Assembly (NCBI GenBank): GCA_041484665.1
Contig: JBGPIA010000017.1
Span: 1-64,000 of the forward strand
Direction of reading: 5' to 3'
Length of the DNA stretch: 64,000 bases
From: Candidatus Krumholzibacteriia bacterium
Lineage (GTDB): Bacteria > Krumholzibacteriota > Krumholzibacteriia > JAJRXK01
Shown here: in pieces, positions 12,343 to 28,358 of the stretch
Position numbering within the stretch: the first letter of the stretch is position 1
How the letters are laid out: the number at the start of each line of letters is the position of its first letter
Position numbers and translations under genes: made by a program
Notes under the pieces: model-generated
What the model was told of the DNA's origin: nothing
What the model saw: only the letters and a program-made list of their open reading frames with translations
Database searches by the model: none

Positions 12343-12618
12343 TTAGCGACCTGCAAGGACTTGCCGCGCAGTGGCAGGCGCACCGTCGGGTCCCATCAGG
12401 CGGTACCCGACACCGTAGATCGCCTCGATGCGCGCCACCAGCTCGCGGGGCGAGAACGGCTTGATGACGTAGTCGTCTGCCCCCAGCTCCAGCCCGCGTA
12501 GGATTTCCGCTTCGGTGCTGCGGGCGGTGAGCAGCAGGATGGGCACCACCGAGGGGGCCGGCAGCGCGCGGCAGAGATCCAGACCATCCCGACCGGGCAG
12601 GATGATCCCCCGCGGCAT
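12343..12618 (-). pseudogene. Remnant of OmpR/PhoB-family response regulator with internal deletion
   Basis: LPGRDGLDLCR..PILLLTAR..GLELGADDYVIKPFSPRELVARI joined directly to terminal wHTH motif YGVGYRL; N-terminus and phospho-Asp missing. Confidence 0.8.
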
Positions 12619-12909
12619 GGACCTTCCATTGGGTCTGCCGTGGGACCCCGGGGTCCAAGGCGTCCGTCAGGGCGCCGCGAGAGCGAACCTTAACGACAGG
12701 TGCCCCATTCCGGGCGGTTCGACCGCCGCGCACACGCTCTCGACGCCGCCGTGGGCGGGCGGGACACGAGGACGGTGCTTCCTCTTCGTGGAGACCCGCT
12801 GACCGTAAGCCGTCGTGCGGGGGAAGGCAAATGAGTGCCGGGCGCTCGATGGTTGATGTGGCGCCGAGCCTTCTCTGCGTTGCGATCGGCGGGCTGCTCC
12901 CGCCACGCT

Positions 12910-14016
12910 TCAGTCGGCGTGCAGCACGACCACGCGCAGCGAGCCGTCGAGCTCCGCGCGCAAGTCGGGGCGCTGGACGGCCTGCGTCTCGACCTGCTCG
13001 CGAGGCAGCACGAGGCTCTCGGCCAGGAACACGGCTGCGATGTCCGCGCGCCGCTGCGCCAGGGCCTGATCCTCAGCCACGACCACCATTTTCACCGGCG
13101 AGTACGGATGCTGGCGGATGGCATCGGCCGCCTTGGTCAGCCAGTCCTTGCCCGCGTCCGTGAGCTTGCTGTCCTCGCGCAGGAAGAGCTCGCCGCCGGC
13201 GACCTCGAGCACCCGGTCGTGTCCGTCGCGGTAGTCCAGGGCCGGCACTCGGAAACTGGTACCGGCATAGTTGTAGCGGTTGGTCCCCTTGTCGGTGATG
13301 CTGAAGACGTAGCTGTAGGGATACCCCACCTGCAGGATGTCGCCGCCGTCAGCGCGCCCGTCCCACGCCAGCGCGACGGCCGGGCTGCCCTTGCCCGCGT
13401 AGCGCCGGAATGGCGCGCCACGGAAGTCGGTGATCACCAGCTCCCAGTCCTTGACCGAGTGCCCCTCGGGCCGCTCGGGTGAGAAGAGGGCCACGGGCTG
13501 CGTGGACATGTCGCGCAGCCACAAATGCGGCGTCTGGTCGCTGTGCAAGGGCTCGAGGTTGTTGAGGTGCGGCTGCAGCCCACTCACGGGGCTCACCGCG
13601 AGGGCCTCCTGGTCCATGGCCGTCGCGAACGAGTCCACCAGAGCCGCCGTGAGCTTCAGCTCGAAGGTCCCCTTCTGGATCGGCTGGCGGACCTGGTTCT
13701 GCGCCTCCACCACCATCTCGGGCAGCTGCGCGCCGTTCTGCCCCGGCTGGGTGAACTCGGAATTGGCCTTTGGGCCGCCCTTCACGGCGGTGCTGTCGCT
13801 GCCGCCCTGGGCGAGCGCGACGCGCGCCGGCGCCGGCACGGCCATGCAAAGCGCCAGGCAGAGGGCCAGCCGCAGGCCCGGGCGCAGTCCGATGTGCAAG
13901 GCTGGGCAAAGGCCGATGCGCGAGTCCGCGCGAAGGGCCGCGCGATGGACCGGCAAAGCTGCCATCCCCAGCGGATGCATCCTCCAGGCATGATGGTTGT
14001 GGTGCGGTGCGCTCAT
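12910..14016 (-). CDS. Exported protein with FlgD-like Ig domain and degenerate OmpA-like C-terminal domain
   Basis: Signal-like LALCLALCMAVPAPARVALA; WELVITDFRG..LAWDGRADGG..YSY; LFLREDSKLT..LAQRRADIAAVFL; last gene of the operon. Confidence 0.65.
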   Translation of the reverse strand: MSAPHHNHHAWRMHPLGMAALPVHRAALRADSRIGLCPALHIGLRPGLRLALCLALCMAVPAPARVALAQGGSDSTAVKGGPKANSEFTQPGQNGAQLPEMVVEAQNQVRQPIQKGTFELKLTAALVDSFATAMDQEALAVSPVSGLQPHLNNLEPLHSDQTPHLWLRDMSTQPVALFSPERPEGHSVKDWELVITDFRGAPFRRYAGKGSPAVALAWDGRADGGDILQVGYPYSYVFSITDKGTNRYNYAGTSFRVPALDYRDGHDRVLEVAGGELFLREDSKLTDAGKDWLTKAADAIRQHPYSPVKMVVVAEDQALAQRRADIAAVFLAESLVLPREQVETQAVQRPDLRAELDGSLRVVVLHAD

Positions 14017-14101
14017 GGTCTCGTGCCGGCCGCGAGCCGGCCCTCCGGTGGTTGCTGTGGCGCGGCGCGGACCACGGGTGGGTCGCCCGCGGCTCCTGTC
14101 C

Positions 14102-15436
14102 CTACTTCAAGCGGAAGACGATCGTGATGATTCCCCACTGCTCCACCGCCGCCTGACCGGGCGGCAGCGGCGCGAAGCGGAATTGGCGGATGGCCGCCAT
14201 CGCCGACTGGTTCAGGTCGCGGTGCGCCGCGGTCTGGGTCAGCAGCAGGTTGTCCTTCACGCGGCCGTCGGGCAGCACAGTGAAGCGCACGGCGACCACG
14301 CCCTCCCAGCCATTCTTGCGCGCTGCCTGCGAGTACTCGGGCGTGACGCTGGACAGGATCTTGCGTCCCTGGATCTGGCCGGAGATCGTCATCGTGATCC
14401 CTTTGCCGCCCTGTACGCTCTCGGCGTCCTGCGGCATCTGGTCGCGGTTCTTCTGTGCGTCCTGCTCCTGCCGCACGATACTGCGCGCGTCGGGCGCATC
14501 CGCGATCGGCCTGCGGGCTCCGCTTGCGCCCGCCGACCCCGCGCCACCGCTGCCGGGACCTCCAGGGCCACCGCGGCTTCCATTGCCGCGGCCGTAGTCC
14601 AGCACGGTGCGCCACCCTTCCTGCTCGGTCCCGCCGGTGGAGGCCGGGCCCTCCACGTCGGCGATCCCCGCGCCCTGGCCGCCGCGGGACAGCGGTGCCA
14701 CTTGCTGCAGCGCCGCCACCGGTCCCTGGTAGATCTTTTTGCCCGGCGCGAGTGTCCCCCCGGTGAGCCCGGGGTTGCCCTCGTCGCTGCCGCCGGTGGG
14801 GATCTGCAGGGCGAGCGCACTGCTACCGGCGCCGGCCTCCTGCACATCGAACTCCAGGTCACCGGCCGCAAGGCGGCTCTTGCGTCCCACCAGCACCTGC
14901 TCCTGCGGGTCGAACGCCTTCGCTTGCAGCCGAGCCGGGGCAGCCATGGCCGGCACCTCCGCCGAGCTGGCGAGATCCAGGGCGCGGTTCACGAAGTCGG
15001 CATCGAGCGCGGGCGCTTCGTTCTGCCGGAACGTCTTGCTATCGAGCTTGGGCGCGATGGATAGGGCCTGGGGCCGCTTGGCGTCGGGCAACGCGGGCGC
15101 CTTGACGTCGGCCAGGCCGGGCCGAGGCACGGGACTGGGTGGCGGCGCCTGCTGCTTGGTGGGCGCGAGCGCCGAGCGCGAGCTGAGCCCCTTGTCGCCC
15201 GGCTCCTTGACCACCGGCGCCGGATGCGTCTTGAGGAGCACCTTGGCCGCGATGTTCTCGCCATAGCGCGCCTGGATGTAGGAGATCTCGGTGAGCTCCT
15301 CGGGCAGGCGCACGGTGGGGCCGCGGCGCAGCATCGTCAGCGTCAGCAGCAGCAGCAGTGCGTGGATAGCGGTGCTGATGCCGAGGCTGCGCTGGGTGCT
15401 GGCGCGCCGGCTGATGGTGCGACGCATCATGGTCAT
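14102..15436 (-). CDS. TonB-family energy transducer
   Basis: N-terminal TM with SxxxH (ISTAIHALLLL); Pro/Ala-rich linker; TonB_C PEYSQAARKNGWEGVVAVRFTVLPDGRV..AIRQFRFAP; ATGA overlap with upstream exbD. Confidence 0.9.
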   Translation of the reverse strand: MTMMRRTISRRASTQRSLGISTAIHALLLLLTLTMLRRGPTVRLPEELTEISYIQARYGENIAAKVLLKTHPAPVVKEPGDKGLSSRSALAPTKQQAPPPSPVPRPGLADVKAPALPDAKRPQALSIAPKLDSKTFRQNEAPALDADFVNRALDLASSAEVPAMAAPARLQAKAFDPQEQVLVGRKSRLAAGDLEFDVQEAGAGSSALALQIPTGGSDEGNPGLTGGTLAPGKKIYQGPVAALQQVAPLSRGGQGAGIADVEGPASTGGTEQEGWRTVLDYGRGNGSRGGPGGPGSGGAGSAGASGARRPIADAPDARSIVRQEQDAQKNRDQMPQDAESVQGGKGITMTISGQIQGRKILSSVTPEYSQAARKNGWEGVVAVRFTVLPDGRVKDNLLLTQTAAHRDLNQSAMAAIRQFRFAPLPPGQAAVEQWGIITIVFRLK

Positions 15437-15846
15437 GGGCGCGCGCCCCTCAGCGTGTCGTGCTGTCGGGTGGCGATGGCGATGCGCGGGGCCTTGGCTG
15501 CCTCCACCTCTGCGATCACTTTCTTCACGTCGCCGTACATCATGCCCCGGTCGGCCTTCACCACCGCGATCGCCTGCGGGTTCTGCTCGAAGAACGTCTG
15601 CAGCTGGGTGCGCAGGTCCTGCAGCGAGATCTGCTCCTCGCCGACGAAGATGCCGCCGTCCAACGTGCAGGTGATCTCGGCGCGTTCCGAGTCGCTGACG
15701 TCGCTCGCCCGGGCGGGCGGCAAGTCGACGCCGTGTGCCGTCGGGTTGAGGTGCGGCGCCATCACCATCAGTGCCAGGACGATGATCAGCGAGACGTCGA
15801 TCAGCGGTGCAACGTTGGTCTTGCTCTGGTAGAGATAACCCTTCAT
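15433..15846 (-). CDS. exbD: ExbD/TolR family protein (copy 2)
   Basis: NVAPLIDVSLII with TM Asp; VDLPPA; VVKADRGMMYGDV. Confidence 0.88.
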   Translation of the reverse strand: MKGYLYQSKTNVAPLIDVSLIIVLALMVMAPHLNPTAHGVDLPPARASDVSDSERAEITCTLDGGIFVGEEQISLQDLRTQLQTFFEQNPQAIAVVKADRGMMYGDVKKVIAEVEAAKAPRIAIATRQHDTLRGARP

Positions 15847-16283
15847 GGTGCCCGCTCCTCCCTGCGGTCCAGCAGCGCCAGGTGCGAGGCGCCACTTGCC
15901 TTGGCGACGTCCAGCACGGCCACCACCTGGCCCAGCGCCACGTGGTCGCTGGGCACGACCACCACGGTCTTGTCGGCACGAGCGGCGAGCCGGCGCGCGA
16001 GCTCGTCTCCCAGTTCTTCCAACGTCACGGGCTGCCGGTTGAGGGTGAGTCCTTCGGGCGTGACGGCCACCGTCAGCAGCTGATCGTCATCGTCCTTGGG
16101 ACGTTGCGTCACCACCTGCGCATTCGCGCGTGCCGTGGTGGCGTTCACCTGGATGCCCTTCCACAGCACGTCGGGCATGGTGACCAGGAACACCAGGATC
16201 AGCACCGTGCAGACATCCGCCAGCGGCGTGATATTGAACTCGTTGATCCCGTGGCTGAAACCGCCGCGCTTGAGACCGGTCAT
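15843..16283 (-). CDS. exbD: ExbD/TolR family protein (copy 1)
   Basis: EFNITPLADVCTVLILVFLV with TM Asp; GQVVAVLDVAKASG; ATGA overlap with next gene. Confidence 0.88.
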   Translation of the reverse strand: MTGLKRGGFSHGINEFNITPLADVCTVLILVFLVTMPDVLWKGIQVNATTARANAQVVTQRPKDDDDQLLTVAVTPEGLTLNRQPVTLEELGDELARRLAARADKTVVVVPSDHVALGQVVAVLDVAKASGASHLALLDRREERAP

Positions 16284-16291
16284 GGCTGTAC

Positions 16292-16993
16292 CTAGCTCAG
16301 GAACCCGGCTGGAGCGGGCTCCTGCGTGGGCGCGCGCCGCGCCGGCTGGCTGTGCACCGGGCGCTCCGGGGCCGCGGTGCGCTGCGTCATCAGGCTGAAG
16401 AACTCTTCGCGCACGTCCTCCAGCTCGGCGATGCGCGTGCGGATCCGCCGCACGAAGACGTTGAAGAAGATGGTGGCGACCACGGCGATGACGATGCCCA
16501 CGGCCGTAGTGATCAGGGCCTCGGCCACGCCCATCGCCACGACCGAGCTGCCGCCCGAGCCGGTGCGCGCGATGTCAGCGAAGGCGCGGATGATTCCGAT
16601 CACCGTGCCGAACAGTCCGATCAGCGGACCGATGTTGCTGAGCGTGCCCAGCACACCGAGGTTGCGCTCCATCTCCACCTGCTCGAGCTCGATGGCGGTG
16701 TTGATGCGCTGCTGCAACTGGGGAATCGGCAGGTGGCGGTGCCCGATGGCCTGCTCCAGCACGCGCGCCGCGCTCCCCTTCTGCTTGCGGCTGATCTGCA
16801 GCGCCGCGTCGAACTCCCCGGCGAGGAGCTTCGGGGAAAGATCCTGCATGAGCCGACGCACGTTGATGGCGCTCGACCTGAAGTACAGGCCGCGCTCCAA
16901 AGCGAAGCCGAGCGTCACCACCGACGTGAGCAGCAGCACGCCCAACGTAGGCGAGACCCTCAACAGATCCATGAGTGACATGTCACCAAACAT
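16292..16993 (-). CDS. exbB: ExbB/TolQ/MotA proton-channel protein
   Basis: Three TM segments; GPLIGLFGTVIGII, GVAEALITTAVGIVIAV; GGAGAGG RBS before ATG 16993. Confidence 0.92.
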   Translation of the reverse strand: MFGDMSLMDLLRVSPTLGVLLLTSVVTLGFALERGLYFRSSAINVRRLMQDLSPKLLAGEFDAALQISRKQKGSAARVLEQAIGHRHLPIPQLQQRINTAIELEQVEMERNLGVLGTLSNIGPLIGLFGTVIGIIRAFADIARTGSGGSSVVAMGVAEALITTAVGIVIAVVATIFFNVFVRRIRTRIAELEDVREEFFSLMTQRTAAPERPVHSQPARRAPTQEPAPAGFLS

Positions 16994-17018
16994 CGGCTTT
17001 CCTCTCCGTTGTGCTGGC

Positions 17019-20000
17019 CTAGTTGCCGGCCACCTGTTGGTCCTTGATGGCCGTGATGCGCCCCTGCGCCATCTCGGTCCACTCAGGCTTGCCGTGAGCA
17101 TCGATGATGCGCTGGTAGGCGTTCGTCGCACCGGCCCAATCGCGGCGTGCCTCGAGGATCCTCCCGATCTGCGCCAGACTGGCGATCCGGTAGGGATCGG
17201 CGGCCGCGCCGCTGCCGGCCCCCTGCTCGTAGACGCGCAAGGCATCATCGAGCTTCTCTTGCTTCTCCCAACACTCGCCCTGCTTGAAGCGGATCTGCAG
17301 GAGCTGGCCCGGGTCCTGGGCGAGGGCCTTGTCGTAGGCCTCGATGGCGCGCGGGTAGTCGCCCAGCTCGTCCTGGTAAAGGGCGCCGACCTGGAGCCAG
17401 AGCCCCTTTGCCTTCTCGTGCTCGGGGTAGTCGGCCAGCACGCGCAGGAACCCGCCGATGGCCGAGGTCCAGTCCTCCACCTGCTGATAGGCCAATGCTG
17501 CGTTGTAGACCGCCAGCGGCGCGTACTGGCCCTTCGGGTACAGATCGGCCAGCGTCTCGAAGCTCTGCGCAGCCTGGCCGAAGCGCTCTAGCTTGAACAG
17601 CACCGTGCCCTCGCGGAAGTGCGCCAGTTCGGCCAGCTCGTGGTCCTTGTGGGTGGAGATGAAGTTGCGATACCCCGCCAGGGCCGGCTCGAGCTGATCC
17701 TGTTTGTAGTAGCTCTCGGCCAGGTAGAACAGCGCGCCCGGCCCGCTCTCGGAGCCCGGGTAGTCCAGCGTCACTTTCTCGAAGAAGCGCGCGGCGGTGG
17801 CGTAGTCGCCCTTGGCAAAGGACTCCTGCCCCTTGGACCAGTACACGTCGGCGGCCAGCGGGCTGTCGGGGCGGCGTGCCAGGTACTGCTCCATGTCCTT
17901 CCCGCTGCGGTAATAGCAGGACTGCACGCCCAGCTCGGCGTCCTGCGCGCGCGGGTCGTTGGGGTACGCCGCGAGGAACGCGTTGAAGGCGGCGATCGCC
18001 GCGTCGTCCTCCTTCAGGTTGTAGGCGCAGTTGGCCGTCCCGAAGCAGGCGTCGGCCGCGTGGGCCCCCTTGGGCCAGCCAAAGGAGAGCTGCTGGTAGG
18101 TGGCGCGCGCGTCCGCGAAACGGCCCAGGCCGAATTGGGTGTCGGCGATGTGGTACAGGGCGTCCTCGGCCTCGGGCGCCTTGGGGAAGCGCGCCAGCAG
18201 GTCCCGCCAGGTAGCAAGGGCCTGGTCGTAGTACTGCAGGCGGTAGCAGGCCATGCCCAGGTTGGCCATCGCCTTGGGCGCATCCGGAGAGTCCGGGTTC
18301 TTCTTCAGGAACTCGGTGAACTGGGCCAGGGCCTCCTCGTACTTGTGCTGGTTGAAGTAGATGGAGCCTACCGCCAGTGCGTTGGTCCCGCCGTCGCTGT
18401 CGGAGTTGGCCAGCGCCAGCAGGAAGCGCTCCTGCTCCTTGAGCGCCAGCTCGTAATCCCCAGCCTGGCTGAGGCTGGCCACCAGCCCCTGCAGAGCGGG
18501 CGCGGCCACGTTGCTCTTGGGGTAGCCCGTGAGCACTAGGCGGTACATGCCGCCCGCTTCCTGGTAGAGCCCCTGCGCGTAGTACGCTTCGCCCAGGTAG
18601 TAGTAGGTGCGGGCCCGCCATTGCGACGGCGTGGGCAGCAGCCGCTTGGCGATGTAGTGGTAGTTGGTGATCAGCCGGTCGTACTGCCCCCGCTGGTAGT
18701 AGGCCAGCGTAGAGAGGAACAGCGCGCGCTCCGCAACGTCGGTATTGACGTGCTTGTCCAGGACGTTTTGGAAGGCCAGGACCGCCTGATCGTGCTCGCC
18801 GAGCTCGGTGTGGCAGAAGCCCTCGAGAACCAGCACGCGCGCCGCCAGGACGTCGCCTGGATAACGCCGCAGGAACTCCTGCGCCATCTGGATCGCCTGC
18901 GCGTAGTTCCCATCCTGGGCGTAGGCAAACACGATCTTGTGCAGCGCGGCGCTGGCGACCTGGCTGTCGGCGAACTCGCGAACGACGCGCGTCCAGGCGA
19001 AGATGGCGTCGGCGCTGCGGCCCAGCGCGATGTTGCAGCTGCCGATCAGGTAGCTGGCATAAGCGCAGACCGGCTCCTTGGCGAAGGCGTCGCAGATCTC
19101 CGTTAGCTGCCGGATGCTCTCGTCGTAGTGCCCATCGTTGTAGGTGACGCAGGCCATCTTGTAGCGCGCGTTGGGCACGAAGGGGCTATCGACGTACCGT
19201 TCGATGAACTCCTTGTAGCTGCTCACCGCCACTGCGTTCTGCCCGCTGCGGTAGAACGCCTCGGCCACGCTGAAGGCCGCGTCGTCGGCCAGTGAGCTCT
19301 CCGGGTACTGGCGCAGCACCTGCTTGTAGCGCTGGATCGCCAGGATGTACTGCCCGGTGTCCTCCAGGCAGCGGCCCATGTAGTACAAGCCGCGGTCGGT
19401 GGGGACGCTCTCGAAGTGTTTCAAGGCCTCGTCGTAGGCCTTGTTGTGGTAGGCGAAGATCCCCAGCGCGAAGTGGACCTGGGGGAGGTCCTTGTAGCCC
19501 GGGCGCGCCTCCAGCAGTCGGCGATAGGCCGCTTCCAGCCGCAGCCAGTTGTCCTCGACGATGTAGGCCTGGCCGACCTCGTAGAGCGACTCGGCCAGCA
19601 GGAAGGTGTGCTCGTGCTCGTCGATCAGGCGCGTCCAGGCGGCGATGGACTCGGGGAAGCGCTTCAGGTTGAACAGACACTCGCCGCTGCGCAGCAGCAC
19701 GCTGGCTTGTAGATGGGCATCGCGCCCCTTGAAGCCATCGACGCGCTCGAACTCCTTCAGCGCGGCTTCCCAGTCGCCGATGGCGAAGTAGCACTCGGCG
19801 AGCATGTACTGTGCGGACGCCGCCCGCGGGCTGCCTTTGTAGGTGGTGACGAACAACCGGTACTGCTGCATCGCGGCCGACTTGTCCTTGCCGGCGGCGA
19901 AGGCCTCGCCGGCCTGCCGCCACAGGACGTCTTCGGCCGGGATCGGGCCCTGGGGCTGCGCTGCGCGCGCGGGTGCAATCGACAACAGCGTCGCCAGCGC

Positions 20001-20078
20001 GGCCGGCGCGGCCAGCGTCGCCAACCCGGCCAGCGCGCCACGCCGCCCTGCCGGGCCGATCCAGGAGAGAGCGCTCAT
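17019..20078 (-). CDS. Large exported TPR-repeat protein (~1019 aa, BamD/YbgF-like repeats)
   Basis: Signal peptide ending PARAA; more than 20 helical repeats such as YPESSLADDAAFSVAEAFY and FPKAPEAEDALYHIADTQF; ATGA overlap with upstream gene. Confidence 0.9.
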   Translation of the reverse strand: MSALSWIGPAGRRGALAGLATLAAPAALATLLSIAPARAAQPQGPIPAEDVLWRQAGEAFAAGKDKSAAMQQYRLFVTTYKGSPRAASAQYMLAECYFAIGDWEAALKEFERVDGFKGRDAHLQASVLLRSGECLFNLKRFPESIAAWTRLIDEHEHTFLLAESLYEVGQAYIVEDNWLRLEAAYRRLLEARPGYKDLPQVHFALGIFAYHNKAYDEALKHFESVPTDRGLYYMGRCLEDTGQYILAIQRYKQVLRQYPESSLADDAAFSVAEAFYRSGQNAVAVSSYKEFIERYVDSPFVPNARYKMACVTYNDGHYDESIRQLTEICDAFAKEPVCAYASYLIGSCNIALGRSADAIFAWTRVVREFADSQVASAALHKIVFAYAQDGNYAQAIQMAQEFLRRYPGDVLAARVLVLEGFCHTELGEHDQAVLAFQNVLDKHVNTDVAERALFLSTLAYYQRGQYDRLITNYHYIAKRLLPTPSQWRARTYYYLGEAYYAQGLYQEAGGMYRLVLTGYPKSNVAAPALQGLVASLSQAGDYELALKEQERFLLALANSDSDGGTNALAVGSIYFNQHKYEEALAQFTEFLKKNPDSPDAPKAMANLGMACYRLQYYDQALATWRDLLARFPKAPEAEDALYHIADTQFGLGRFADARATYQQLSFGWPKGAHAADACFGTANCAYNLKEDDAAIAAFNAFLAAYPNDPRAQDAELGVQSCYYRSGKDMEQYLARRPDSPLAADVYWSKGQESFAKGDYATAARFFEKVTLDYPGSESGPGALFYLAESYYKQDQLEPALAGYRNFISTHKDHELAELAHFREGTVLFKLERFGQAAQSFETLADLYPKGQYAPLAVYNAALAYQQVEDWTSAIGGFLRVLADYPEHEKAKGLWLQVGALYQDELGDYPRAIEAYDKALAQDPGQLLQIRFKQGECWEKQEKLDDALRVYEQGAGSGAAADPYRIASLAQIGRILEARRDWAGATNAYQRIIDAHGKPEWTEMAQGRITAIKDQQVAGN

Positions 20079-21379
20079 TGCTGCTTGCCCCCCGCGGCGT
20101 CCTGGTCGGCGCCGCTGACGTCGATCTTGATGGGTACCCGCGTGCGGTCGCGGAAGCCCAGCACCTCGACCGACGAGGTGTAGTCCCACGCCTCGCCCAG
20201 GTCGTCGAGAATGGTCACGGTGGCGATGTAGTTGCCATCGCCCACGAGCCGGCCCTTGTCGTCGTCGCCGGTCCAGGTCACCCCACCCGGTGGTGGGCCG
20301 TTGCCCGAGACGGTCTTCACCAGCTCGCCGCGGTGGTCGCGGATCTCCAGGCGCCAGCTCTCCACGCGGCCGCGCACGGCGGTCTTGATGTCGAAGGTGA
20401 CGTCGCGCTCGTCGCCCGAGGGGCTGAACAGCGCGCGGTCACGGTGCACCTTCACCCCGTAGGGCACGCCGAAGCGCAGCGTGGCGCTGAGCACGTTGAC
20501 CGCACCCAGCTCCTGGTTCACGAACGCGTAGTCGAGCTGCCAGTTCTCCCAGCGGAACCCGGCGCCGAAGCAAAGCTGCGCGCCCACCGTGTCGTAGCCG
20601 CCGCGCAGGCCCAGCGAGCGCGAGGGCCACACCTCCACGCCGCTCTGGAAGTCGACATCCATGCGCTCGGTCTTGGTCAGGTCGGACAGGAGCAGCAGGC
20701 GGTTGCCGAAGAAGCGCAGCGCGGTCCCCGCGCGCAGGCTGCGCGCCAGTCGCTCAGGCTGCTGATCCAGAGTGATCTCCGGGGCCAGGGCGTTCTGCAC
20801 CGCGAAGCCCAGACTCACGCTGCGCAGCGGGCGCAGATACAGGCCCAGGTCGGCGCCCACGCCCGAGCCCTTGGCCTCGCCCAGCCGCTGCGACGCCGAC
20901 TTCAGAGTGGCGCCGTAGCCCATGCGGCCGTTGCCGCGAGCGTAGCTCAGGGCAAAGACGCCCTCGCTCTCCGTGAAGGTCTCGCTCAGGTCCTCCAACA
21001 GGGTCGCCCGCTCGAAGCCGCCGCTGCGGGCGAAGGTGCCGCTGACGGCGAACGAGCCGGCGCTCTGCGTGGGGACGCCGAACGCGAAGAAGCTGTACTG
21101 CGTGTCCTCGAACAGGGTGGCACCCATGGCCGTGATCTCCATCGTGCGCAGCTGGGCCAGTCCGGCAGGATTCCAGTAGGAAGCCGCGGCGTCGTCAGCC
21201 AGCCCCATCACGGCGTTCCCCAACCCCATCGTTCGCGCGCTGCTGGCGAAGCGCAGAAATGCCCCCGGTGCGCCCGCGTCGTTGGCGGCCCGCGCCGGTG
21301 CCGCGCCCGCGAGCGCGGTCATCGCGAGCGCCAGACAAGAGGCCAAGGAATGGATGCGGCTCGTGCTGCTGCGTCTCAT
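20075..21379 (-). CDS. PorV/PorQ-like outer-membrane beta-barrel fused to C-terminal FlgD-like domain
   Basis: Signal peptide; AFLRFASSARTMGLGNA..AASYWNPAGLAQL PorV/FadL-type start; amphipathic strands to LDYAF..LRFG; then FSPSGD..WRLEIRDHRGELVKT..WTGDDDKG..DGNY. Confidence 0.8.
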   Translation of the reverse strand: MRRSSTSRIHSLASCLALAMTALAGAAPARAANDAGAPGAFLRFASSARTMGLGNAVMGLADDAAASYWNPAGLAQLRTMEITAMGATLFEDTQYSFFAFGVPTQSAGSFAVSGTFARSGGFERATLLEDLSETFTESEGVFALSYARGNGRMGYGATLKSASQRLGEAKGSGVGADLGLYLRPLRSVSLGFAVQNALAPEITLDQQPERLARSLRAGTALRFFGNRLLLLSDLTKTERMDVDFQSGVEVWPSRSLGLRGGYDTVGAQLCFGAGFRWENWQLDYAFVNQELGAVNVLSATLRFGVPYGVKVHRDRALFSPSGDERDVTFDIKTAVRGRVESWRLEIRDHRGELVKTVSGNGPPPGGVTWTGDDDKGRLVGDGNYIATVTILDDLGEAWDYTSSVEVLGFRDRTRVPIKIDVSGADQDAAGGKQQ

Positions 21380-21384
21380 GGTGC

Positions 21385-24300
21385 CTACTTCACCACCGCG
21401 ATCTTGCGGCGCAGGTCGATCCCGGCGCCGCTGACCCGGCAGATGTAGCCTCCGTTGGAAACCACGTCGCCGTTGCCGTTGCGGCCGTCCCATACGAACT
21501 GGGCCAGCTCGCCCGCCGTCACGCTGAGCTGGTGGCTGAACACCACGCCGCCGTAGAGGTCGTGGATCGTCAGGCTGACGCTGCCGGTTTGCCCCGGCGT
21601 GAACAGGATCACCGTGGGCTCGTCCCCGGCGCGGAAGGGATTGGGCCGGTTCGTGATGGGGCGGTCGGTCGTCAGCGTCGCCGACGTGTAGAGCTTCACC
21701 GAGCGCACGCTTTCGCGGACCAGCGACCGCTCCTCGGCGAAGAAGCGCAGCGTATGGACGCCGGGTTCGGCGAGCCCCAGGCCGGCGAGCGTGAACGCGC
21801 CGCCGTAGACCTGGCTGGGCACGGGCGGGTCGGCCACATCCACGTCGTAGTAGATGGCTTGGATCCCGCCGGCATCGCCGGTGGTCGCCGCCAGCTGGAT
21901 GCGCGTGTCCGGCGAAAGGTAGTAGCCGCCCGCGTAGGAGACTGCCGGAGGCGTGAAGCTGAGGACCGTCACCGGCGGCCCGACCACGTCGACCAGGACC
22001 TCGTTGGACGACAGAGCACCCGCCCGCGCGACCAGCCGGATGTCCTGCGCTCCGAAGAGCGTCACGCGCAGGAAGACCTGCGCCAGCCCGCGGCTGTCCG
22101 AGGCCGCCGCCAGCTGGATCGCACCGGCGTCGCCCAGCGTGCCGTCACCCGCGAGCACCTGGAAGGTCACATCATTGCCCGGCACGGGGTTGCCCGCGGC
22201 ATCGGTCAAGCGTACGGCCGCGCGGGCGCGGTCGCCCGAGCGCAGCGGCGTGGCCAGCGGCAAGCTGGTCAGGGGGTCCGCCGTCTGGTCGTACACCTGG
22301 AGCGCGGCCTGGCTCGCCCCCGCGGGCAGCACCACGACGTGGCCGCTGAACGCGGCCTCGCCGGTCAGCGTGTCGGTCACTGCCAGGTAGATCGTCTCGG
22401 CGCGGTCGTAGGAGACGCTCAGGCTCGCGACGCCGCCAGCGGTCGCGGCCGGGAGATAGTCCGGGCAGGTCACGTCGAGGCACCCGCGCGGGCCGTCGGT
22501 GAGCGGGTTCCACTGCGCCAGCGGGATGGGCCGCGGCGCGGAGAAGAGATCGTACGCCCGGAGCCGGAACCCGCGGTCGTCGTTGGTGACGAGCTGCCCG
22601 GTCACGATGTCCACGCGACGGACCTGTGCGGTCCAGCTCTGCCCGGCGCGCACCGTGTCCGGCGCCGTGACCGCGAACTGCACGCCTACGGGAACCACGG
22701 TGAGGACCTCGCTGAACGCCACGCGGCCGCGGGCATCACCCACGCGCAGGACGATCTGCTCGCTGACGCCGTAGGTCTCGCCGGCGATCACGGCCTCTCC
22801 GGCCACGAGCGTGCCCGAGACGATCGAGAGCGTGCCGGTGCCTGGACTGCGGTCGGGCTTGACCGCGGTGAGCGAGAACGTGTTGCCGGCGTTGATGCGC
22901 TGCCCGGTCTCGGGGTTGACCAGCCGCACCGTGACCTGGAAGGACGCGGGCGGGCCAGCCGTCACCACCGGCGGGGCGGGCACGATCACGCGATACTCGG
23001 CCTCGTTCAACGGGATGTCCACGCGGCCCGTCCCGAGCGCGGCGCGCGTCTGGTCGTTGGCGAACACCGCCACCAGGCCGGGGTTGCCGATCACGATCTG
23101 GAAGTCGCGGCTGCCGTTGATGAACGGCGCGTTCTGATCCACGGGATTGACGAGTGAGAGCGAGCTGCCCGAGCTCGACAGCACGATCACGCCGTCGTTG
23201 ACGGTGTTCACCAGGTTGAAGTACTGGTCCACCGCCCGCACGCTGATGGTGAACGGCACCTCGGCCTGCTGCGTGATCGGCGTGCCGGTCTTGCCGCTGC
23301 CGGTGATGGCGCCCGCGTTCACAGTCTCGCCTGGGGCGACGATCTGGATGCGCTTGAAGCCATCCGGCTTCATGTGGCACGTGTTGCTGATCCCGTGCAC
23401 GCCCGAGCTGTCGCTCACGTCCACGAACATGTCCTCGGCCCGCGAGTAGGTCTGGGAGATGCTGCGCACGCCCTGTGCGAGCAGCCCCTGGCGCACGCCG
23501 AGCACTCCGCCGCCCCCGAGCCCCGTGGTGGCGCTGAAGACCTGGACGTTGAACAGCCGGTCCTGGGTCGTGACGCGCTGGCCCGTGTTGCTGTCCATCA
23601 GCTGCACGTCCATGGTGAACGTGCTGGGACCGCCGACGACGGCGCTGTCGGGCAGCGCGACGGCATAGTAGAGACCGCCCGTTTGCATGTGGATGACGGA
23701 GCTGAACGCCTCGCGGCCGAAGCCGTCGCTGACGCGCAGAATGATGTCCTCGACGGTGCTGTAGCTCTGGTTGTTGAGCACGGTCACGCCGCCGATGAGC
23801 TGCGCCTGCGTAATCCCCAGCGTCCCGGTCGCCACCGCACGGTTGGGCTTGAGCGGCGTCATCGTGAAGCGGTGCTGCGCTGTGGGAACGACGTTGCCCG
23901 TGGTCGGGTCGATCAGCTTGACCGTCACCTGGAACCCCGGCACCGGACCGGTGGGAGCGGCCGCGGGCACCGTGATCTCGTACTGGTACGGCGGGTCGAC
24001 CGGGATTCCCACGGACTGGAAGGGCTTGCCGGTGTCGTCGAGGTCGTAGACAGCGACGTCCACGACGCCCTCGTCGGTCAGGAAGCCGTTGAAGGTGCGC
24101 TTCCCGTTCACCAGCGGCACGTCGTTGACGGTGGGGTTGCCCGGCAGCCCGAAGGAGTTGTCGCTGGCAACCAAGTGGATGCGCCCGCCCGCCGCCGTGT
24201 CGTCCAGATTCCAGTACTGGTCCACGGCGCGCACCGTGATGGGGAACGGCTCCCCGGAGCGCTGGCGCAGCGGTGCGCCCGACTTGCCCGCCACGGCGAA

Positions 24301-27300
24301 GCCCGGATCGCCCGCCTCCACCACCTCTCCCGGCGCGACGATCTGCAGTTTCTTGTAGCCGTCGTTGTCCACCGCGAATACCGGGCTCGAGGCGGACAGG
24401 CCCGTGGAGTCGCTGACGGCGACGTAGACGTTTTCCGCCTTGGTGTAGCTCTGCGGGAAGGTGATGTGGCCGTGGTCCAGCCGCTGGCGCGTCGCGCCCG
24501 CCGCCCCCACGCCGGCCCCGCCCAGCGCGCTCGTCATGGTGATATCGAAGTTGCGATCGTCGTCGATGAGAGTGTGGGTCTCGGTGTCGCGCAGCACCAC
24601 CGTCACGGGAAACGTCGCCGGCGGGCCGGCCTTGGGCTGCGGCACCGTGCCGACCGTCACCACGTACTGCAGGCCGTTGGGCTGCATGTGGATCGGGTTG
24701 CTGTAGCTGGCGCGGCCCGACGTATCGGAGATCTGCAGGACGATGTCCTCGACGGTGTCGTAGGCCTGCGTGTTGAGGGTGACCGTGCCCCCGTTGAGCT
24801 GCGCCTGCGTCACCTGCAACACGCCGCTGGAAGGTTCGAGGTTGCTCCGCAGCGCGCGCAGCGTGACCCAGTTGTTGGCTGCCGCGAGCGGCTGACCGCT
24901 GCTGTCCACCAGGCTGATCGACATGCTGAAGGCGCTGGGCGGGCCCACGCGCGCGCTGTCGGGTGTAGCGATCTGGTAGGCCGCCCCCTGCTGCACGTTG
25001 ATCGTCACCGCCTGGCCGGTGAGGTCGGTGTTGTTCAGCGCCGAAGCCGCCAGCGTGATGTACCCCGTGTTGATCAGGAACAGCGGGAAGATGATCTCAC
25101 CGTTGACCATCTGCTGATTGTTGTTCAGCGGATTGGTCGGCGTGATGGAGTTGTCGTCGCTGGCGATGTGGATGTGCTCGGTGCTGTTGTCCACCTGGTT
25201 CCAAAACTGGTCGACCGAGCGCACGCGCAGGTTGAAGGCCAGGCTGGCAGTCTGTGGCGCCGGGCTGCCTGTCTTGCCGTCGGCCTCGGGCCCCCCCGGC
25301 TGCGGCGTCTCGCCCGGCGGCAGGATCATCAGGCGTGCGAAGCTGTCCGGCCCGATCAGGATCCTGCTGGTGTCGGTGCGCGCCGGCCCGATCAGGTCGC
25401 TGACGGCCAGCCGCTGCAGCGTGGCCGTCCTGAAGAACAAATCGAAGTTCGAGGCCCCGCCGGGGTCCAGCGGCTGGTTGTTCGCCGAGATCATCTGGAA
25501 GAAGCTGCTGCTCTCGAAGTGCACCGCTGGCTGATTGGATACTGGGTTCCACCAGGCGTCGGTCGCCAGCACGCGGGCCACCACGGGGGTTCCCGCCGTG
25601 CGGGGCAGCGGTGTGCCCACCTTTCCCGGCACGATGCCGGGGGTGTGCGTCTCGCCGTTGAGCAGGATCAGCAGGTCGGCGTAGGGCCCGGCGAACACGG
25701 TGAACACGTTGCTGCTGTCGGTGCGCGCGAAGACGTCCTCACGGGCGAACAGGCGCACGCCGGCGCCCGCCTTCGTGATGCGGATCGGGCCGCGCCAGCA
25801 GCCCCGGTAATTGCCCGTCCCGAAGCCGTCGCCCATGGACACCCGCGTCGGTGTCAGCACGCCGGTGCCGTTGTTGACGTAGATGGTCACGCTGTCCTGG
25901 TAGTCGGCGACGTGGTTGTTGAAGATGTCGCGCGCGATCACGGTGACGTTGGGCAGGAACGAACCGGCCTGATGGTTGGGGATGGGCTGCAGCACGTCGG
26001 CCGGCGTGGGATTGGCGCGGTTGTTAATCCCGATGTCGAAGTGGTGGATGACCCCGGCCTTCAACGGGATGGTGGTGAAGGCAAAGACGGCACTGCCGTT
26101 GTGGTCGACGCGGATCGTCTGCTGGTTGGGGTCGGCCAGCGTGCGCAGCGTCACCAAGAACTGGGCGGTATTGTCGTTGAGGACCTGCGGGTTGGTGGGC
26201 AGCACCGCCGCCAGGTCGCTGCTGCTGAAGTCCGCCGAGAGCGGCAGCACGGGGTCGACATCCTGCACGGGGTTCCAGTAACCGTCCGTGGCGTAGACGT
26301 GCACGTTGAACGCCACGCCCGCATCCTGGATGGATGGCTGGCCGATCTTCCCGTCGTTCTCGATGGAGTCGAAGATGCCGGGTGCGAGCTGCTCCCCGGG
26401 CGCCTCCACCACCATACGGGCGAAGGCAGCGGGGGACACCAGCAGCGGACTGCTCAGATTGGGCGCCACGCCGCTGGCGGAGGCCTGCAGCAGCTGGTTC
26501 TGGTAGGTGCGAAAGATCACCTGCACGTCGACCGGATTGTTCAGCGTGATCAGGTTATTGGGGAACGCCGGCAGCTGGAAGTAGCCGGTCGGGCAGCTGA
26601 TGGTGACGTTGCGCAGCCCGGGGACGATGTTGGCGTACTTGTCCACCGGCCGGATCGTCACCGGGAAGACCACCTGGCCGGCCGTCACACTGTTGGGCAC
26701 GCCCAGGTTGCCGCTGAAGTTCTCGTCGTTGAGCCCCGGTACCCAGGTCTGCCCGGGATACGTGATCAGGATGCGGTGCAGAGGCCCCGAGTTGACCTGG
26801 AACGCCCCCGAGACGCCCACCACGCCCGAGTTGCTGTCGATGATCAGCCGAGCGATGAACGCGCGCTTAGTCACCTGGACGAGGGCGTTGAGCTGCCCGT
26901 TGACGAAGGTCCGCGTGTTTGCGATCAGGTAGTCTTCACTCTCGTCGGCAGCGCCGATGCGCACCCGCATGGTGACGGCGCCGTTGAACGGGAACGGGTT
27001 GTTGTTGATGTCCTCGGCGCGCACGCGCGCCTGGAACGGGATGGTGGTCACCTGGATGTCGGTGGTGTCCCACACCGCGTAGTCGAACACGAAGTGGTGC
27101 AAGCCCTCGGGGTTGATCACCACGTTGCTCTGGCTGCTGGTGTTGATGGGACCGCCGCCGGTGGCAGTCACGCGGCGCAGCCCGGCGGTGATCAGCGTCA
27201 GCGAGTTGTCCAGCGAGGCGTTGCCAGCCATGGGACCGGCCGCGGGCAGGATGACCCCGAGGCTGGGATCGTCGGTGGACCAGGAAAGCGTGGGAAAGGG

Positions 27301-28215
27301 CCCCGCCTCGACGGGGTTCCAGCGCTGGTCGGTGGCGTAGACGTTGACGCCGTTGAAGGCGTTCCCCGAGACGCGCGGCAAGGGGAGGCCGGTCTTGCCG
27401 GGGCTCACGCCAGGTGTGTGCGTCTCACCGGGCAGTAGCAGCAGCACTTTCGCCAACGGCCCCGGACGCAGTGGCGCGATCACGGCGCTGCCGGTGGCCG
27501 GCGTGGGTTGTCCGGGATAGGACCGCGTGTTGGTCGCGGTCAGCGTGTTGTCCCGGTTGACCGGATGCGTCCCCCAGAACACCACGGGCACGGTGACCTG
27601 GCCCAGGTTGAAGCTACTGCCCGCGACGGTGATCGTGGGCCCCACGTCGAAGTCACCGATCAGCGCATCCAGGACGACGTCATCGCGGAAGTTGAGGACG
27701 GTCTGTCCAGTCTGGTCGATGGCGGTGATCGTCGTCGGGACGCTCTGGTCCACGAACTTGTCGCCGGGCGGCACGCTGATCACGAACTGGCGGACGTAGT
27801 TGTAGCAGTCGATCAGGATCTGGGCGTGAGGGACCGAGGCGTCGTCGAAGTCACGCACCTTGAGTCGCACGGGCTGGCCGGCCGCCAGGAAGCGCACGTT
27901 GTCGAACTGGTGCTCGCCGCTCTGCAAGTACTGGCGCGCGGGCAACACGGCCGGAACGTCGGGGGAGTAGAGCTCGGCGTGGACGAAGTCCGCGTTGACG
28001 TCGGTGGTGCCGTCCAGGTTGACGGCGCGCACCCGCACGCTGAAATCGACCTCCACGGTGGCCGTGGGCCTGCCCTGGACGATCTGGGGATTGACGACCG
28101 TGATCTCGAGATGGTCGAACGCGGCGGCCACCGAAGGGAGCGCAGCGGCGGGTGCGAGGGCCCACGCCAGCGCGATGAAGGTGCCGCGGCGAGACTGCCG
28201 GCGGAAGCGATCCAT
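21385..28215 (-). CDS. Giant (~2276 aa) exported Ig-repeat surface protein with invasin-like Big domain and T9SS-like/FlgD CTD
   Basis: Signal peptide MDRFRR..LPSVAAA; two repeated module types; LTDAAGNPVPGNDVTF..SDSRGLA; CTD NRPNPF..IHDLYG..WDGRNGNG..GGY..RRKIAVVK. Confidence 0.88.
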   Translation of the reverse strand: MDRFRRQSRRGTFIALAWALAPAAALPSVAAAFDHLEITVVNPQIVQGRPTATVEVDFSVRVRAVNLDGTTDVNADFVHAELYSPDVPAVLPARQYLQSGEHQFDNVRFLAAGQPVRLKVRDFDDASVPHAQILIDCYNYVRQFVISVPPGDKFVDQSVPTTITAIDQTGQTVLNFRDDVVLDALIGDFDVGPTITVAGSSFNLGQVTVPVVFWGTHPVNRDNTLTATNTRSYPGQPTPATGSAVIAPLRPGPLAKVLLLLPGETHTPGVSPGKTGLPLPRVSGNAFNGVNVYATDQRWNPVEAGPFPTLSWSTDDPSLGVILPAAGPMAGNASLDNSLTLITAGLRRVTATGGGPINTSSQSNVVINPEGLHHFVFDYAVWDTTDIQVTTIPFQARVRAEDINNNPFPFNGAVTMRVRIGAADESEDYLIANTRTFVNGQLNALVQVTKRAFIARLIIDSNSGVVGVSGAFQVNSGPLHRILITYPGQTWVPGLNDENFSGNLGVPNSVTAGQVVFPVTIRPVDKYANIVPGLRNVTISCPTGYFQLPAFPNNLITLNNPVDVQVIFRTYQNQLLQASASGVAPNLSSPLLVSPAAFARMVVEAPGEQLAPGIFDSIENDGKIGQPSIQDAGVAFNVHVYATDGYWNPVQDVDPVLPLSADFSSSDLAAVLPTNPQVLNDNTAQFLVTLRTLADPNQQTIRVDHNGSAVFAFTTIPLKAGVIHHFDIGINNRANPTPADVLQPIPNHQAGSFLPNVTVIARDIFNNHVADYQDSVTIYVNNGTGVLTPTRVSMGDGFGTGNYRGCWRGPIRITKAGAGVRLFAREDVFARTDSSNVFTVFAGPYADLLILLNGETHTPGIVPGKVGTPLPRTAGTPVVARVLATDAWWNPVSNQPAVHFESSSFFQMISANNQPLDPGGASNFDLFFRTATLQRLAVSDLIGPARTDTSRILIGPDSFARLMILPPGETPQPGGPEADGKTGSPAPQTASLAFNLRVRSVDQFWNQVDNSTEHIHIASDDNSITPTNPLNNNQQMVNGEIIFPLFLINTGYITLAASALNNTDLTGQAVTINVQQGAAYQIATPDSARVGPPSAFSMSISLVDSSGQPLAAANNWVTLRALRSNLEPSSGVLQVTQAQLNGGTVTLNTQAYDTVEDIVLQISDTSGRASYSNPIHMQPNGLQYVVTVGTVPQPKAGPPATFPVTVVLRDTETHTLIDDDRNFDITMTSALGGAGVGAAGATRQRLDHGHITFPQSYTKAENVYVAVSDSTGLSASSPVFAVDNDGYKKLQIVAPGEVVEAGDPGFAVAGKSGAPLRQRSGEPFPITVRAVDQYWNLDDTAAGGRIHLVASDNSFGLPGNPTVNDVPLVNGKRTFNGFLTDEGVVDVAVYDLDDTGKPFQSVGIPVDPPYQYEITVPAAAPTGPVPGFQVTVKLIDPTTGNVVPTAQHRFTMTPLKPNRAVATGTLGITQAQLIGGVTVLNNQSYSTVEDIILRVSDGFGREAFSSVIHMQTGGLYYAVALPDSAVVGGPSTFTMDVQLMDSNTGQRVTTQDRLFNVQVFSATTGLGGGGVLGVRQGLLAQGVRSISQTYSRAEDMFVDVSDSSGVHGISNTCHMKPDGFKRIQIVAPGETVNAGAITGSGKTGTPITQQAEVPFTISVRAVDQYFNLVNTVNDGVIVLSSSGSSLSLVNPVDQNAPFINGSRDFQIVIGNPGLVAVFANDQTRAALGTGRVDIPLNEAEYRVIVPAPPVVTAGPPASFQVTVRLVNPETGQRINAGNTFSLTAVKPDRSPGTGTLSIVSGTLVAGEAVIAGETYGVSEQIVLRVGDARGRVAFSEVLTVVPVGVQFAVTAPDTVRAGQSWTAQVRRVDIVTGQLVTNDDRGFRLRAYDLFSAPRPIPLAQWNPLTDGPRGCLDVTCPDYLPAATAGGVASLSVSYDRAETIYLAVTDTLTGEAAFSGHVVVLPAGASQAALQVYDQTADPLTSLPLATPLRSGDRARAAVRLTDAAGNPVPGNDVTFQVLAGDGTLGDAGAIQLAAASDSRGLAQVFLRVTLFGAQDIRLVARAGALSSNEVLVDVVGPPVTVLSFTPPAVSYAGGYYLSPDTRIQLAATTGDAGGIQAIYYDVDVADPPVPSQVYGGAFTLAGLGLAEPGVHTLRFFAEERSLVRESVRSVKLYTSATLTTDRPITNRPNPFRAGDEPTVILFTPGQTGSVSLTIHDLYGGVVFSHQLSVTAGELAQFVWDGRNGNGDVVSNGGYICRVSGAGIDLRRKIAVVK

Positions 28216-28343
28216 AGGGTCCCCACGCGGAGGGTGTCTGGCCTTCGATGCAACGCAGAGGGCGGTGGTGCGCGATCGCGGCTGCCGCCTGCGGGGAACG
28301 ACCACGCTCGCTGCGCGACGTTCCCCACCGCGCGCGTTACAAC

Positions 28344-28358
28344 GCAAAGCACATGCCA
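28344..28358 (-). promoter_or_regulatory. Putative sigma54 (-24/-12) promoter for the giant-protein/PorV/TonB operon
   Basis: Minus strand TGGCATGTGCTTTGC = GG-N10-GC, matching TGGCAC-N5-TTGC at all but one position; ~130 bp upstream of ATG 28215. Confidence 0.6.

Follow-up and report, generated by a model that had tools for sequence, protein, structure and literature searches.

Motors of the ExbBD, TolQR and AglRQS families have known roles in import, envelope stability and gliding, and T9SS cargo is energised by GldLM. Ton import couples ExbB-ExbD-TonB to a TonB-dependent transporter, while the Tol-Pal system consists of TolQ-TolR-TolA-TolB-Pal-CpoB. For the Bacteroidota PorE-PorP-PG1035 complex, one account sets out a wall-bridge model (PMC9143113), and the Agl-Glt model has the TonB-like domain of GltG pairing with a strand of GltF, a protein that is disordered over most of its length (PMC11761067).

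Within the window (the whole 64,000-nt stretch of DNA that was analysed), eight ORFs on the minus strand, with GC3 of 0.78-0.91, encode an Ig-repeat stalk, a PorV-family barrel, a TPR protein, ExbB, two ExbD proteins, TonB and a protein with FlgD and OmpA folds (gene 8, ORF8). The initial annotation described eight co-oriented genes with three ATGA overlaps, and recomputation from starts and stops gave exactly that arrangement: from gene 1 to gene 8, the junctions are a gap of 5 bp, an ATGA overlap, gaps of 25 and 8 bp, two further ATGA overlaps and a gap of 85 bp. The block was also said to lack a TonB-dependent receptor, which Pfam and NCBIfam searches of the eight genes bear out; eight plug-domain genes lie elsewhere in the host genome (G000) and none among these eight. 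No sigma-70 promoter was found in 12000-29200, and the eight terminators in that interval are no excess over the 5.7 expected.

As in the PorE-PorP-type-B-CTD anchor and SprB-SprF (PMC9143113, PMC10202324), the cargo ends in a CTD-like domain, its gene adjoins that of a dedicated barrel of the 14-strand family, and TPR and OmpA-like domains face the periplasm. The operon departs from these systems in that its barrel is of the PorV_fam kind and carries a FlgD-like tail, in place of PorP, and in having TPR and OmpA-like parts that are separate non-lipoproteins, and a full ExbB/ExbD/ExbD/TonB motor in a host without detectable GldLM. In common with Agl-Glt (aglRQS, gltD, E, G and C; partial texts of PMC3169522, PMC11761067 and PMC9946355) are one TolQ-like and two different TolR-like subunits, a TonB-like transducer, a long TPR scaffold and an outer barrel carrying a surface protein, but here TonB_C replaces the AgmX/PglI tail, a PorV-family barrel replaces GltABH, a CTD cargo replaces the lipoprotein CglB, and the OmpA-like partner is extra. 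All Glt orthologue profiles scored far below cut-off in the operon (GltC 27.4/450, GltE 25.9/225, GltG 13.4/650, AgmX/PglI tail 26.9/40). Tol-Pal, in the available description (PMC12204202), likewise has a motor and a transducer that work on a soluble partner in the periplasm, itself linked to a domain that binds the wall, and a TPR protein assists; the operon, however, lacks the TolB propeller and a lipidated Pal, has two ExbD/TolR subunits and adds a barrel and surface cargo. Ton import likewise uses these motor families, TonB_C and a target strand of the TonB-box kind, whereas the operon has no plug or barrel transporter and its box-like strand is on a periplasmic protein.

The phyla carrying the operon run a T9SS-like pathway. 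In the host genome, SprA (TIGR04189, 484.5 vs 200) is encoded on contig C3, unlinked to the operon, and PorU (NF033707, 494.7 vs 420) adjoins a PorV_fam gene scoring 185.5. There are eight PorV genes, and 9/14 PorV-like genes, as judged by eye, stand directly behind a gene with a CTD-like end. GldL, GldM and GldN were not found in this genome (93.65% complete) by searches that had no positive-control match, and GldK reached 51 bits against a cut-off of 350; across 208 genomes of the phylum, GldM was found in none and SprA_N in 160. This pattern of SprA with no GldL, GldM or GldN match agrees with the initial proposal of T9SS-style cargo served by a motor other than GldLM.

Gene 1 (21385..28215) encodes the secreted stalk, most likely from the ATG at 28215 (2276 aa), where a signal peptide and the homologues begin. 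Repeat spacing suggests about 20 Ig-like domains. The model of residues 32-600 is all beta, with tandem Ig-like domains (pLDDT 92.9), and its best fold match is FdeC (Z 11.7, rmsd 9.7 over 291), an Ig-like stalk fold as in FdeC/invasin. The CTD-like end (residues about 2189-2276; 21388..21651) scores barely above cut-off for FlgD_ig (27.6 vs 27), matches the PorU model weakly, in its CTD region, and, by BLAST, matches the C-termini of many host proteins; at E<=0.05 the type-A CTD families TIGR04183 and PF18962 gave no match, and FlgD_ig alone did. In the label 'giant CTD adhesin', the adhesive part is not supported: Pfam and NCBIfam gave no lectin, VWA or catalytic domain, the modelled residues 32-600 are Ig-like, and the stalk is as conserved as the barrel, with mean identities of 58% and 60%. 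Where the cargo resembled complement, nuclear-pore or S-layer proteins in fold, the similarity was rejected as generic to Ig arrays (TM about 0.2).

Gene 2 (20075..21379; 434 aa) encodes an outer-membrane barrel of the PorV/PorQ family with a C-terminal FlgD-like domain. Its earlier description as PorV-like was upheld: it exceeds the NF033709 PorV_fam cut-off (120.2 bits vs 90), and its closest solved structure is PorV (6h3i_F, E 1.1e-15). It falls below the PorV equivalog NF033710 (36.7 vs 250), as does the host PorV beside PorU (127.1 vs 250). FadL was rejected, with no Pfam match to that family and no FadL among the 26 PDB matches at E<=1. The FlgD-like tail is homologous to the Ig domain of ORF8 (probability 98.1). 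Gene 3 (17019..20078; 1019 aa) encodes a TPR protein with a signal peptide and matches to many TPR families; a lipobox was found neither in it nor in its homologues (0/31). Its match to PorW/SprE is weak (98.9 bits vs 250) and of a generic TPR kind, and it exceeds the YbgF/CpoB cut-off through its TPR repeats.

ORF8 (12910..14016; candidate start codons at 14016, 13980, 13965 or 13845) has no Pfam or NCBIfam match. Modelling and alignment suggest a signal peptide, a TonB-box-like strand, a low-confidence linker, a FlgD/CTD-like Ig domain (Z 9.5, rmsd 2.4 over 83) and an OmpA_C/MotB-like domain (Foldseek E 1e-6; Z 13.9, rmsd 2.8 over 116 residues), so the OmpA-like fold initially assigned to the last gene is supported by the predicted structure. 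Because GHTD, which we take to be the usual motif of OmpA_C domains, is missing and the conserved Arg occurs in just 36/66 homologues, the predicted wall binding is uncertain; a lipobox pattern occurs in 2/31. The TonB-box-like strand (residues 98-106; 13699..13725) was recognised in 51/66 ORF8 homologues and missed in 15/66, against 5/593 control proteins of the host genome, though the 51/66 is partly circular, the ORF8 alignment itself having supplied the pattern. A similar, looser pattern is present in 3/8 host TonB-dependent receptor genes. With no such strand in the barrels (0/30) or the TPR proteins (0/31), the earlier suggestion that TonB acts on one of these gives way to ORF8 as the candidate target.

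The motor is encoded by genes 4 to 7. Gene 4 (16292..16993; 233 aa) belongs to the ExbB/TolQ/AglR family, with three hydrophobic segments and 99.4 bits for MotA_ExbB (PF01618), below the TolQ and ExbB equivalog cut-offs. Genes 5 (15843..16283) and 6 (15433..15846) encode ExbD/TolR-family subunits (PF02472, 61.9 and 73.1 bits), both with the transmembrane Asp. This residue is kept in 53/53 aligned copies of gene 5; among 45 aligned copies of gene 6 the position is Asp in 26 and Asn in 19, the latter being the 19 other long-cargo copies aligned. Gene 7 (14102..15436) encodes a TonB-like transducer with a single N-terminal transmembrane helix carrying S-x3-H, a long linker and TonB_C (59.8 bits; TIGR01352 above cut-off), and its C-domain (residues about 349-444) is a separate conserved family. 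The AglRQS-like layout that had been proposed is evident, and a sister copy of the motor sits in a Glt-like operon of the same genome: the ExbB proteins of the two are sisters (100/97), and the TonB of the Glt-like operon shares its N-terminal part with gene 7 and has the C-domain swapped for an AgmX/PglI tail.

Many uncultured bacteria share the gene order: it is kept in all 40 loci fetched from the phylum, 34 of them complete, and beyond the phylum as well, in keeping with the conservation anticipated at the outset; since the flanks vary, this linkage is more than chance. In the FCPU426 group (FCPU426/Firestonebacteria), 14/14 loci have the same order as far as their contigs extend, and rearranged variants also occur. 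Loci L101-L105 keep the operon's order, L106 has the motor without adjoining cargo or barrel, L107 is rearranged with the TPR and ExbB genes absent from view, and ORF8 precedes ExbB in L112-L116. Single-chain barrel-FlgD-OmpA proteins (L117, L118 twice, L120) link genes 2 and 8; barrel-OmpA fusions occur in L112 and L115, the barrel of the fusion proteins being named with a profile built in this analysis. ORF8 occurs in 27 genomes without an SprA_N match, a figure tempered by weak SprA_N scoring and by the incompleteness of many of those genomes. Atlas clusters (0.96-0.97) suggest that the operon may also occur in Elusimicrobiota and WOR-3. A metagenome scan with query P0082 gave no match, and a word search for relatives of P0147 found none. 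The ORF8 tree is a quick tree with long branches and serves only to see groups.

We tentatively read the operon as a single machine spanning the envelope: a PorP/PorE-like anchor with a motor, whose TonB would pull ORF8, through putative binding, and so clamp, release or move the barrel-bound surface stalk. The Ig stalk would cross the outer membrane through the separately encoded SprA of the host, and its uncleaved CTD may stay bound to its own PorV-family barrel, by analogy with PorZ-PorQ and type-B cargo-PorP pairs. The periplasmic FlgD-like tail of the barrel and the TPR scaffold could together hold ORF8, whose OmpA-like domain would contact peptidoglycan, so that the TPR protein and ORF8 would stand in for PorE. 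Using the proton gradient, the ExbB-ExbD1-ExbD2 motor would have TonB grip and pull the box-like strand, and this pull might release or reset the clamp, following Tol-Pal logic, leaving the stalk positioned, moved or shed. The operon would then be an optional module beside a GldLM-less T9SS-like pathway rather than its general engine. At the level of sequence, the conserved order, the barrel-FlgD-OmpA fusions, the homologous Ig domains, the box confined to ORF8, the kept motor residues, the PorV-like genes that follow CTD-like ends and the host's SprA, PorU and PorV appear to support such an anchor, and the PorE-PorP wall-bridge and GltF-GltG models offer precedents. Against it stand the loci that depart from the unit (L106, L107, L112-L116), the ORF8-bearing genomes with no SprA_N match, the altered OmpA-like motif, the homologues in which the box pattern is missed and the narrow margin of the CTD-like end over the FlgD_ig cut-off.

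Alternatively, the motor may drive the barrel-bound stalk along the cell in gliding or surface motility, as an Agl-Glt-type motor joined to a SprB/SprF-type adhesin. One TolQ-like and two different TolR-like subunits, accompanied by a TonB-like protein and a long protein of TPR repeats, match the Agl-Glt core (PMC3169522), and the sister ExbB and the sigma-54 control of long-cargo loci are consistent with this, but we consider it unlikely: a wall-binding partner suits fixed rather than mobile cargo (a postulate in PMC9143113), a cytoplasmic FHA domain, GltJ and a lipoprotein are all missing from the block, PMC3169522 regards the Agl-Glt core as not enough by itself for motility, and Pfam, NCBIfam and the model of residues 32-600 revealed no adhesive domain. 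Similarly doubtful is a private export energiser that would pull its own cargo through SprA, or strip the barrel, and so take GldLM's role for one substrate. The Gld results in the host and phylum and the PorW/SprE match lend this some appeal, even though those searches had no positive-control match and that similarity is generic. Against it, one operon type serves cargo of 1000, 1800-1900 and 2250 aa, and host CTD proteins of 2944 and 2948 aa have adjoining barrels and no motor. Moreover, ORF8 is absent from 29/105 high-quality SprA-positive genomes, so that the operon is not a general secretion motor, a role the initial annotation had left room for.

We regard it as rather improbable that the operon is a second Tol-Pal-like tether, with the Ig protein as a structural coat or surface layer and the motor cycling an outer-membrane-to-wall link. 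Although the cargo is conserved in the manner of a structural part, Foldseek ranks the S-layer protein SbsB first for it (at a TM of just 0.17) and the TPR protein passes the YbgF/CpoB cut-off, a tolQ-tolR-tolA-tolB-pal-cpoB-like cluster, assigned by sequence and gene order, stands apart in the host genome (C2:309-314 kb), 39/125 good genomes lack the operon, and no TolB propeller or lipidated Pal is in the block. Every motor part comes from common families, as would be expected of an ordinary Ton import set lying beside a cargo-barrel pair by chance, but this is very improbable: the conserved gene order, kept across phyla, contradicts it, receptors and other Ton sets sit elsewhere in the genome, and the C-domain of gene 7 forms its own family.

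The anchor reading and its rivals alike concern a small, defined gene set in which a complete Ton-type motor is hard-linked to a barrel and cargo of T9SS style; it occurs in at least two phyla that gave no match for GldM or GldN. Literature searched by title and abstract yielded no description of the operon; the supplements of PMC12204202, which cover many force-transducer operons, may hold it unnamed. There is a slim chance that it represents a third route to gliding or surface force: phyla that have SprA and lack GldLM would use a Ton/Agl-type motor to move or retract the stalks that their T9SS secretes. If so, the Myxococcus and Flavobacterium machines would be connected by a living intermediate, which might reveal how T9SS-like systems drew their energy before GldLM.

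Upstream of gene 1 lies a site (28344..28358, minus strand) matching GG-N10-GC, presumably the sigma-54-type -24/-12 consensus. After five loci without an anchor were dropped, a strict-site scan found such a site in 18/22 long-cargo loci (shuffled mean 0.24, opposite strand 1), 0/10 short-cargo loci and 0/7 FCPU426-group loci. The host genome has an RpoN-box gene at C3:144423, and position 28358, where the region had earlier been taken to end, is the first base of the site.

The eight genes on the minus strand very probably form one functional unit. They encode an Ig-repeat stalk, the cargo (gene 1, 21385-28215, 2276 aa), a PorV-family barrel (gene 2, 20075-21379, 434 aa), a TPR protein (gene 3, 17019-20078, 1019 aa), ExbB (gene 4, 16292-16993, 233 aa), two ExbD proteins (gene 5, 15843-16283, 146 aa; gene 6, 15433-15846, 137 aa), TonB (gene 7, 14102-15436, 444 aa) and ORF8 (gene 8, 12910-14016, at most 368 aa), with junctions as initially annotated: a gap of 5 bp, an ATGA overlap, gaps of 25 and 8 bp, two further ATGA overlaps and a gap of 85 bp. 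Position 28358, initially taken as a gene limit, is not a gene start; a GG-N10-GC site of the sigma-54 type begins at this base. Among 22 long-cargo loci, 18 have a strict site 170-310 bases ahead of the mature start, against a mean of 0.24 in shuffled sequence and 1 on the opposite strand; such sites occur in 0/10 short-cargo and 0/7 FCPU426-group loci. Five loci lacking an anchor were left out. An RpoN-box gene is present in the host genome.

Conservation of gene order, on which the initial annotation staked its proposal, holds in 40/40 phylum loci with differing flanks, picked for long contigs and score spread from 139 genomes with an ORF8 match; 34 carry all eight genes, a contig end truncates 3, and the other 3 have one gene inside a fused frame. 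Operon genes are split over several frames in L055, L069, L048, L057 and L074, which could reflect sequencing errors or decay. Outside the phylum, the order is kept, as far as contigs reach, in 14 loci (nine with all eight genes) labelled FCPU426, Firestonebacteria, Goldiibacteriota or uncultured. Five of these genomes contain a SprA-like ORF of 2130-2220 aa, one above cut-off, and a GldN search of four of them gave no match. Near-full-length ORF8 (E below 1e-40) occurs in 28/61 genomes of the FCPU426-group phylum, from which 20 further loci were fetched: L101-L105 are complete, with homologous cargo of 1800-1900 aa; L108-L111 retain barrel to ORF8 with a different upstream protein and a small ORF (in both L108 and L109 the former has Ig-domain matches and the latter HAMP); and L106, L107 and L112-L116 show a partial or rearranged operon. 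Single-chain barrel-FlgD-OmpA proteins also occur (L117:5579-7918; L118:5738-7999 and 12563-15148; L120:5098-7518), and ORFs of this type, 590-900 aa, are numerous per genome in the FCPU426 group. In L119 (130-18118, genome G208), two extra large ORFs of 1809 and 2152 aa precede the cargo gene, the latter ending in CHU_C. In a metagenome locus (L121) the order survives with two inserted genes, one of them a VWA gene, and Atlas clusters suggest occurrence in Elusimicrobiota and WOR-3.

The gene 1 product carries a signal peptide, repeats internally at ~100-115 residues and ends in an FlgD_ig match barely above cut-off; TIGR04183 and PF18962 were not among its listed family-model matches. Residues 32-600, the part modelled, are predicted to be all beta (pLDDT 92.9), with tandem Ig-like stalks as closest folds (FdeC, Z 11.7, rmsd 9.7 over 291). 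Cargo comes in two sizes in the phylum, ~2250 aa and ~1000-1100 aa, with the same repeats, and two genomes (G104, G026) hold both. Since mean identity to the window in long-cargo loci is 58% for cargo, alongside 60% for barrel, 62% for TPR and 60% for ORF8 (ExbD 50-56%, TonB 40%), the cargo does not behave as a variable antigen. The barrel was correctly called PorV-like: gene 2 passes PorV_fam (120.2 vs 90), and the top solved-structure match of its profile is PorV (E 1.1e-15). Its near homologues carry Krumholzibacteria source labels. Its FlgD-like C-terminal domain would be periplasmic if the strand number is even, as usual.

ORF8 returned zero family-model matches, and its predicted structure (pLDDT 79.5) contains an Ig domain of FlgD/CTD-like type (Z 9.5 against PorU 1068-1156), homologous to the gene 2 tail (probability 98.1), and an OmpA_C/MotB-like domain (Z 13.9), in keeping with the OmpA-like assignment made initially. 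The usual wall-binding motif of OmpA_C-like domains is altered, its Arg being present in 36/66 homologues. A conserved TonB-box-like strand follows the signal peptide in 51/66 homologues, a count that is partly circular because the pattern was derived from ORF8 itself; the pattern occurs in 5/593 control proteins, 0/30 barrels and 0/31 TPR proteins, and a looser version finds a comparable strand in 3/8 host receptor genes. Gene 3 is TPR along its entire length, with a lipobox in 0/31 homologues. Family models identify genes 4-7 as ExbB, ExbD, ExbD and TonB. The transmembrane Asp of ExbD1 is retained in 53/53 aligned copies; at the same position ExbD2 has Asp in 26/45 and Asn in 19/45, all Asn copies coming from long-cargo relatives (L045-L069), while the window ExbD2 has Asp. 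With the proton-accepting Asp lost, these relatives would run a motor in which only one axle helix is acidic; such a motor may work by a stroke rather than by continuous rotation.

In the 93.65% complete host genome, the initially proposed search for sprA/sov, gldKLMN and porU found SprA above cut-off, on a contig separate from the operon, and PorU adjoining a PorV (genes of a T9SS-like pathway, seen phylum-wide, with SprA, PorU, PorV and FlgD_ig CTD-type matches, C3:123955-131133 and C2:447223-452517), with eight PorV_fam genes above cut-off and at least 150 FlgD_ig matches. No match turned up for GldL, GldM or GldN, and GldK reached 51 vs 350, in a search run without a Gld-positive control genome, so that absence is not proven. 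Among 208 phylum genomes, SprA_N occurs in 160, GldM in 0 and ORF8, by profile, in 134 (86/125 of high quality); 107 have both SprA and ORF8, 53 SprA only, 27 ORF8 only and 21 neither. Since 9/14 PorV-like genes of the host, judged by eye, come after a gene with a CTD-like end, cargo-barrel pairing is habitual there; what is distinctive of the window operon is the attached motor and ORF8. Two giant CTD proteins of the host, 2948 aa (C1:389690-400581) and 2944 aa (C3:199693-210557), each have a longer PorV-like gene behind them (650 aa, with TPR, for the former; 677 aa for the latter) and no motor genes. A second PorV-motor neighbourhood (L005:5377-15712; C3:74377-84712) contains a TonB-dependent receptor, a CTD protein, PorV, a GWxTD protein, ExbB and two ExbD genes; a TonB gene was not seen there.

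From these parts, folds, linkage and motifs, we tentatively favour, as a predicted binding arrangement, a motorised PorP/PorE-like anchor. The stalk would be exported by SprA and retained on its cognate barrel, as described for PorZ-PorQ and type-B cargo in PMC10202324 and PMC9143113; the TPR protein and ORF8 would act like PorE, which the latter source describes as bridging PorP to the wall; and TonB may pull on the ORF8 strand. This last step may be comparable to the pairing of a GltF strand with the TonB-like domain of GltG in a published Agl-Glt model, as outlined in PMC11761067. Alternatively, the motor could privately energise export of the stalk, which we consider unlikely; as a general export motor the operon is not borne out, since ORF8 is missing from 29/105 high-quality SprA-positive genomes and the operon is thus not needed for the general pathway. 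A second Tol-Pal-like tether seems more doubtful still, and ordinary Ton function is highly improbable. By membership tests, the operon belongs to neither Tol-Pal nor Ton import.

A motility machine with a motor of Agl-Glt type is about as unlikely as private export. The operon is likewise no member of Agl-Glt, as that machinery is described in PMC3169522, PMC9946355 and PMC11761067, and it fails the Glt family models. The host has a non-myxobacterial Agl-Glt-like operon with a sigma-54-like site upstream (L004:3229-14890; C1:250229-261890), encoding an SH3+barrel protein, two unknown genes, TPR proteins of 1680 and 312 aa, a small ORF, and ExbB/ExbD/ExbD with a transducer bearing an AgmX/PglI tail (86.1 vs 40). 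Its barrel is of myxobacterial type (TIGR04565, 57.5 vs 60), and one of its genes is present in 11/41 related genomes. Its ExbB is the host's closest to the window ExbB (66%) and is sister to it (100/97) within the long-cargo clade of a 44-row tree, which has no Myxococcus sequences among its rows; its transducer matches the N-terminal part of the window TonB family (54.7 bits), not the C-domain. The window motor family can thus plug into a Glt-like outer module.

On the favoured anchor reading, it would work like a motor of the Agl/Tol type coupled to a PorP/PorE anchor. No description of the operon was found in the literature searched, most subscription journals excepted, and the main text of PMC12204202 makes no mention of PorV; this is a real and conserved envelope machine, apparently undescribed, built from known parts.

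Elsewhere in the window, four CHAT-TPR genes lie within 64 kb (28884-32069; 44810-48106; 7560-10716; 39766-43010), two whole and two in pieces, one of them next to genes for an ECF sigma factor and a DUF4384 protein (43189-44796). Four further FlgD_ig-tailed secreted proteins (1043-2260; 48945-53054; 54224-55951; 56124-57857) have no barrel gene behind them in any case. Downstream of the operon, 10796-12618 encodes a fragment of 91 aa resembling a response regulator, along with a serine hydrolase of the beta-lactamase family that scores far under class C cut-offs.
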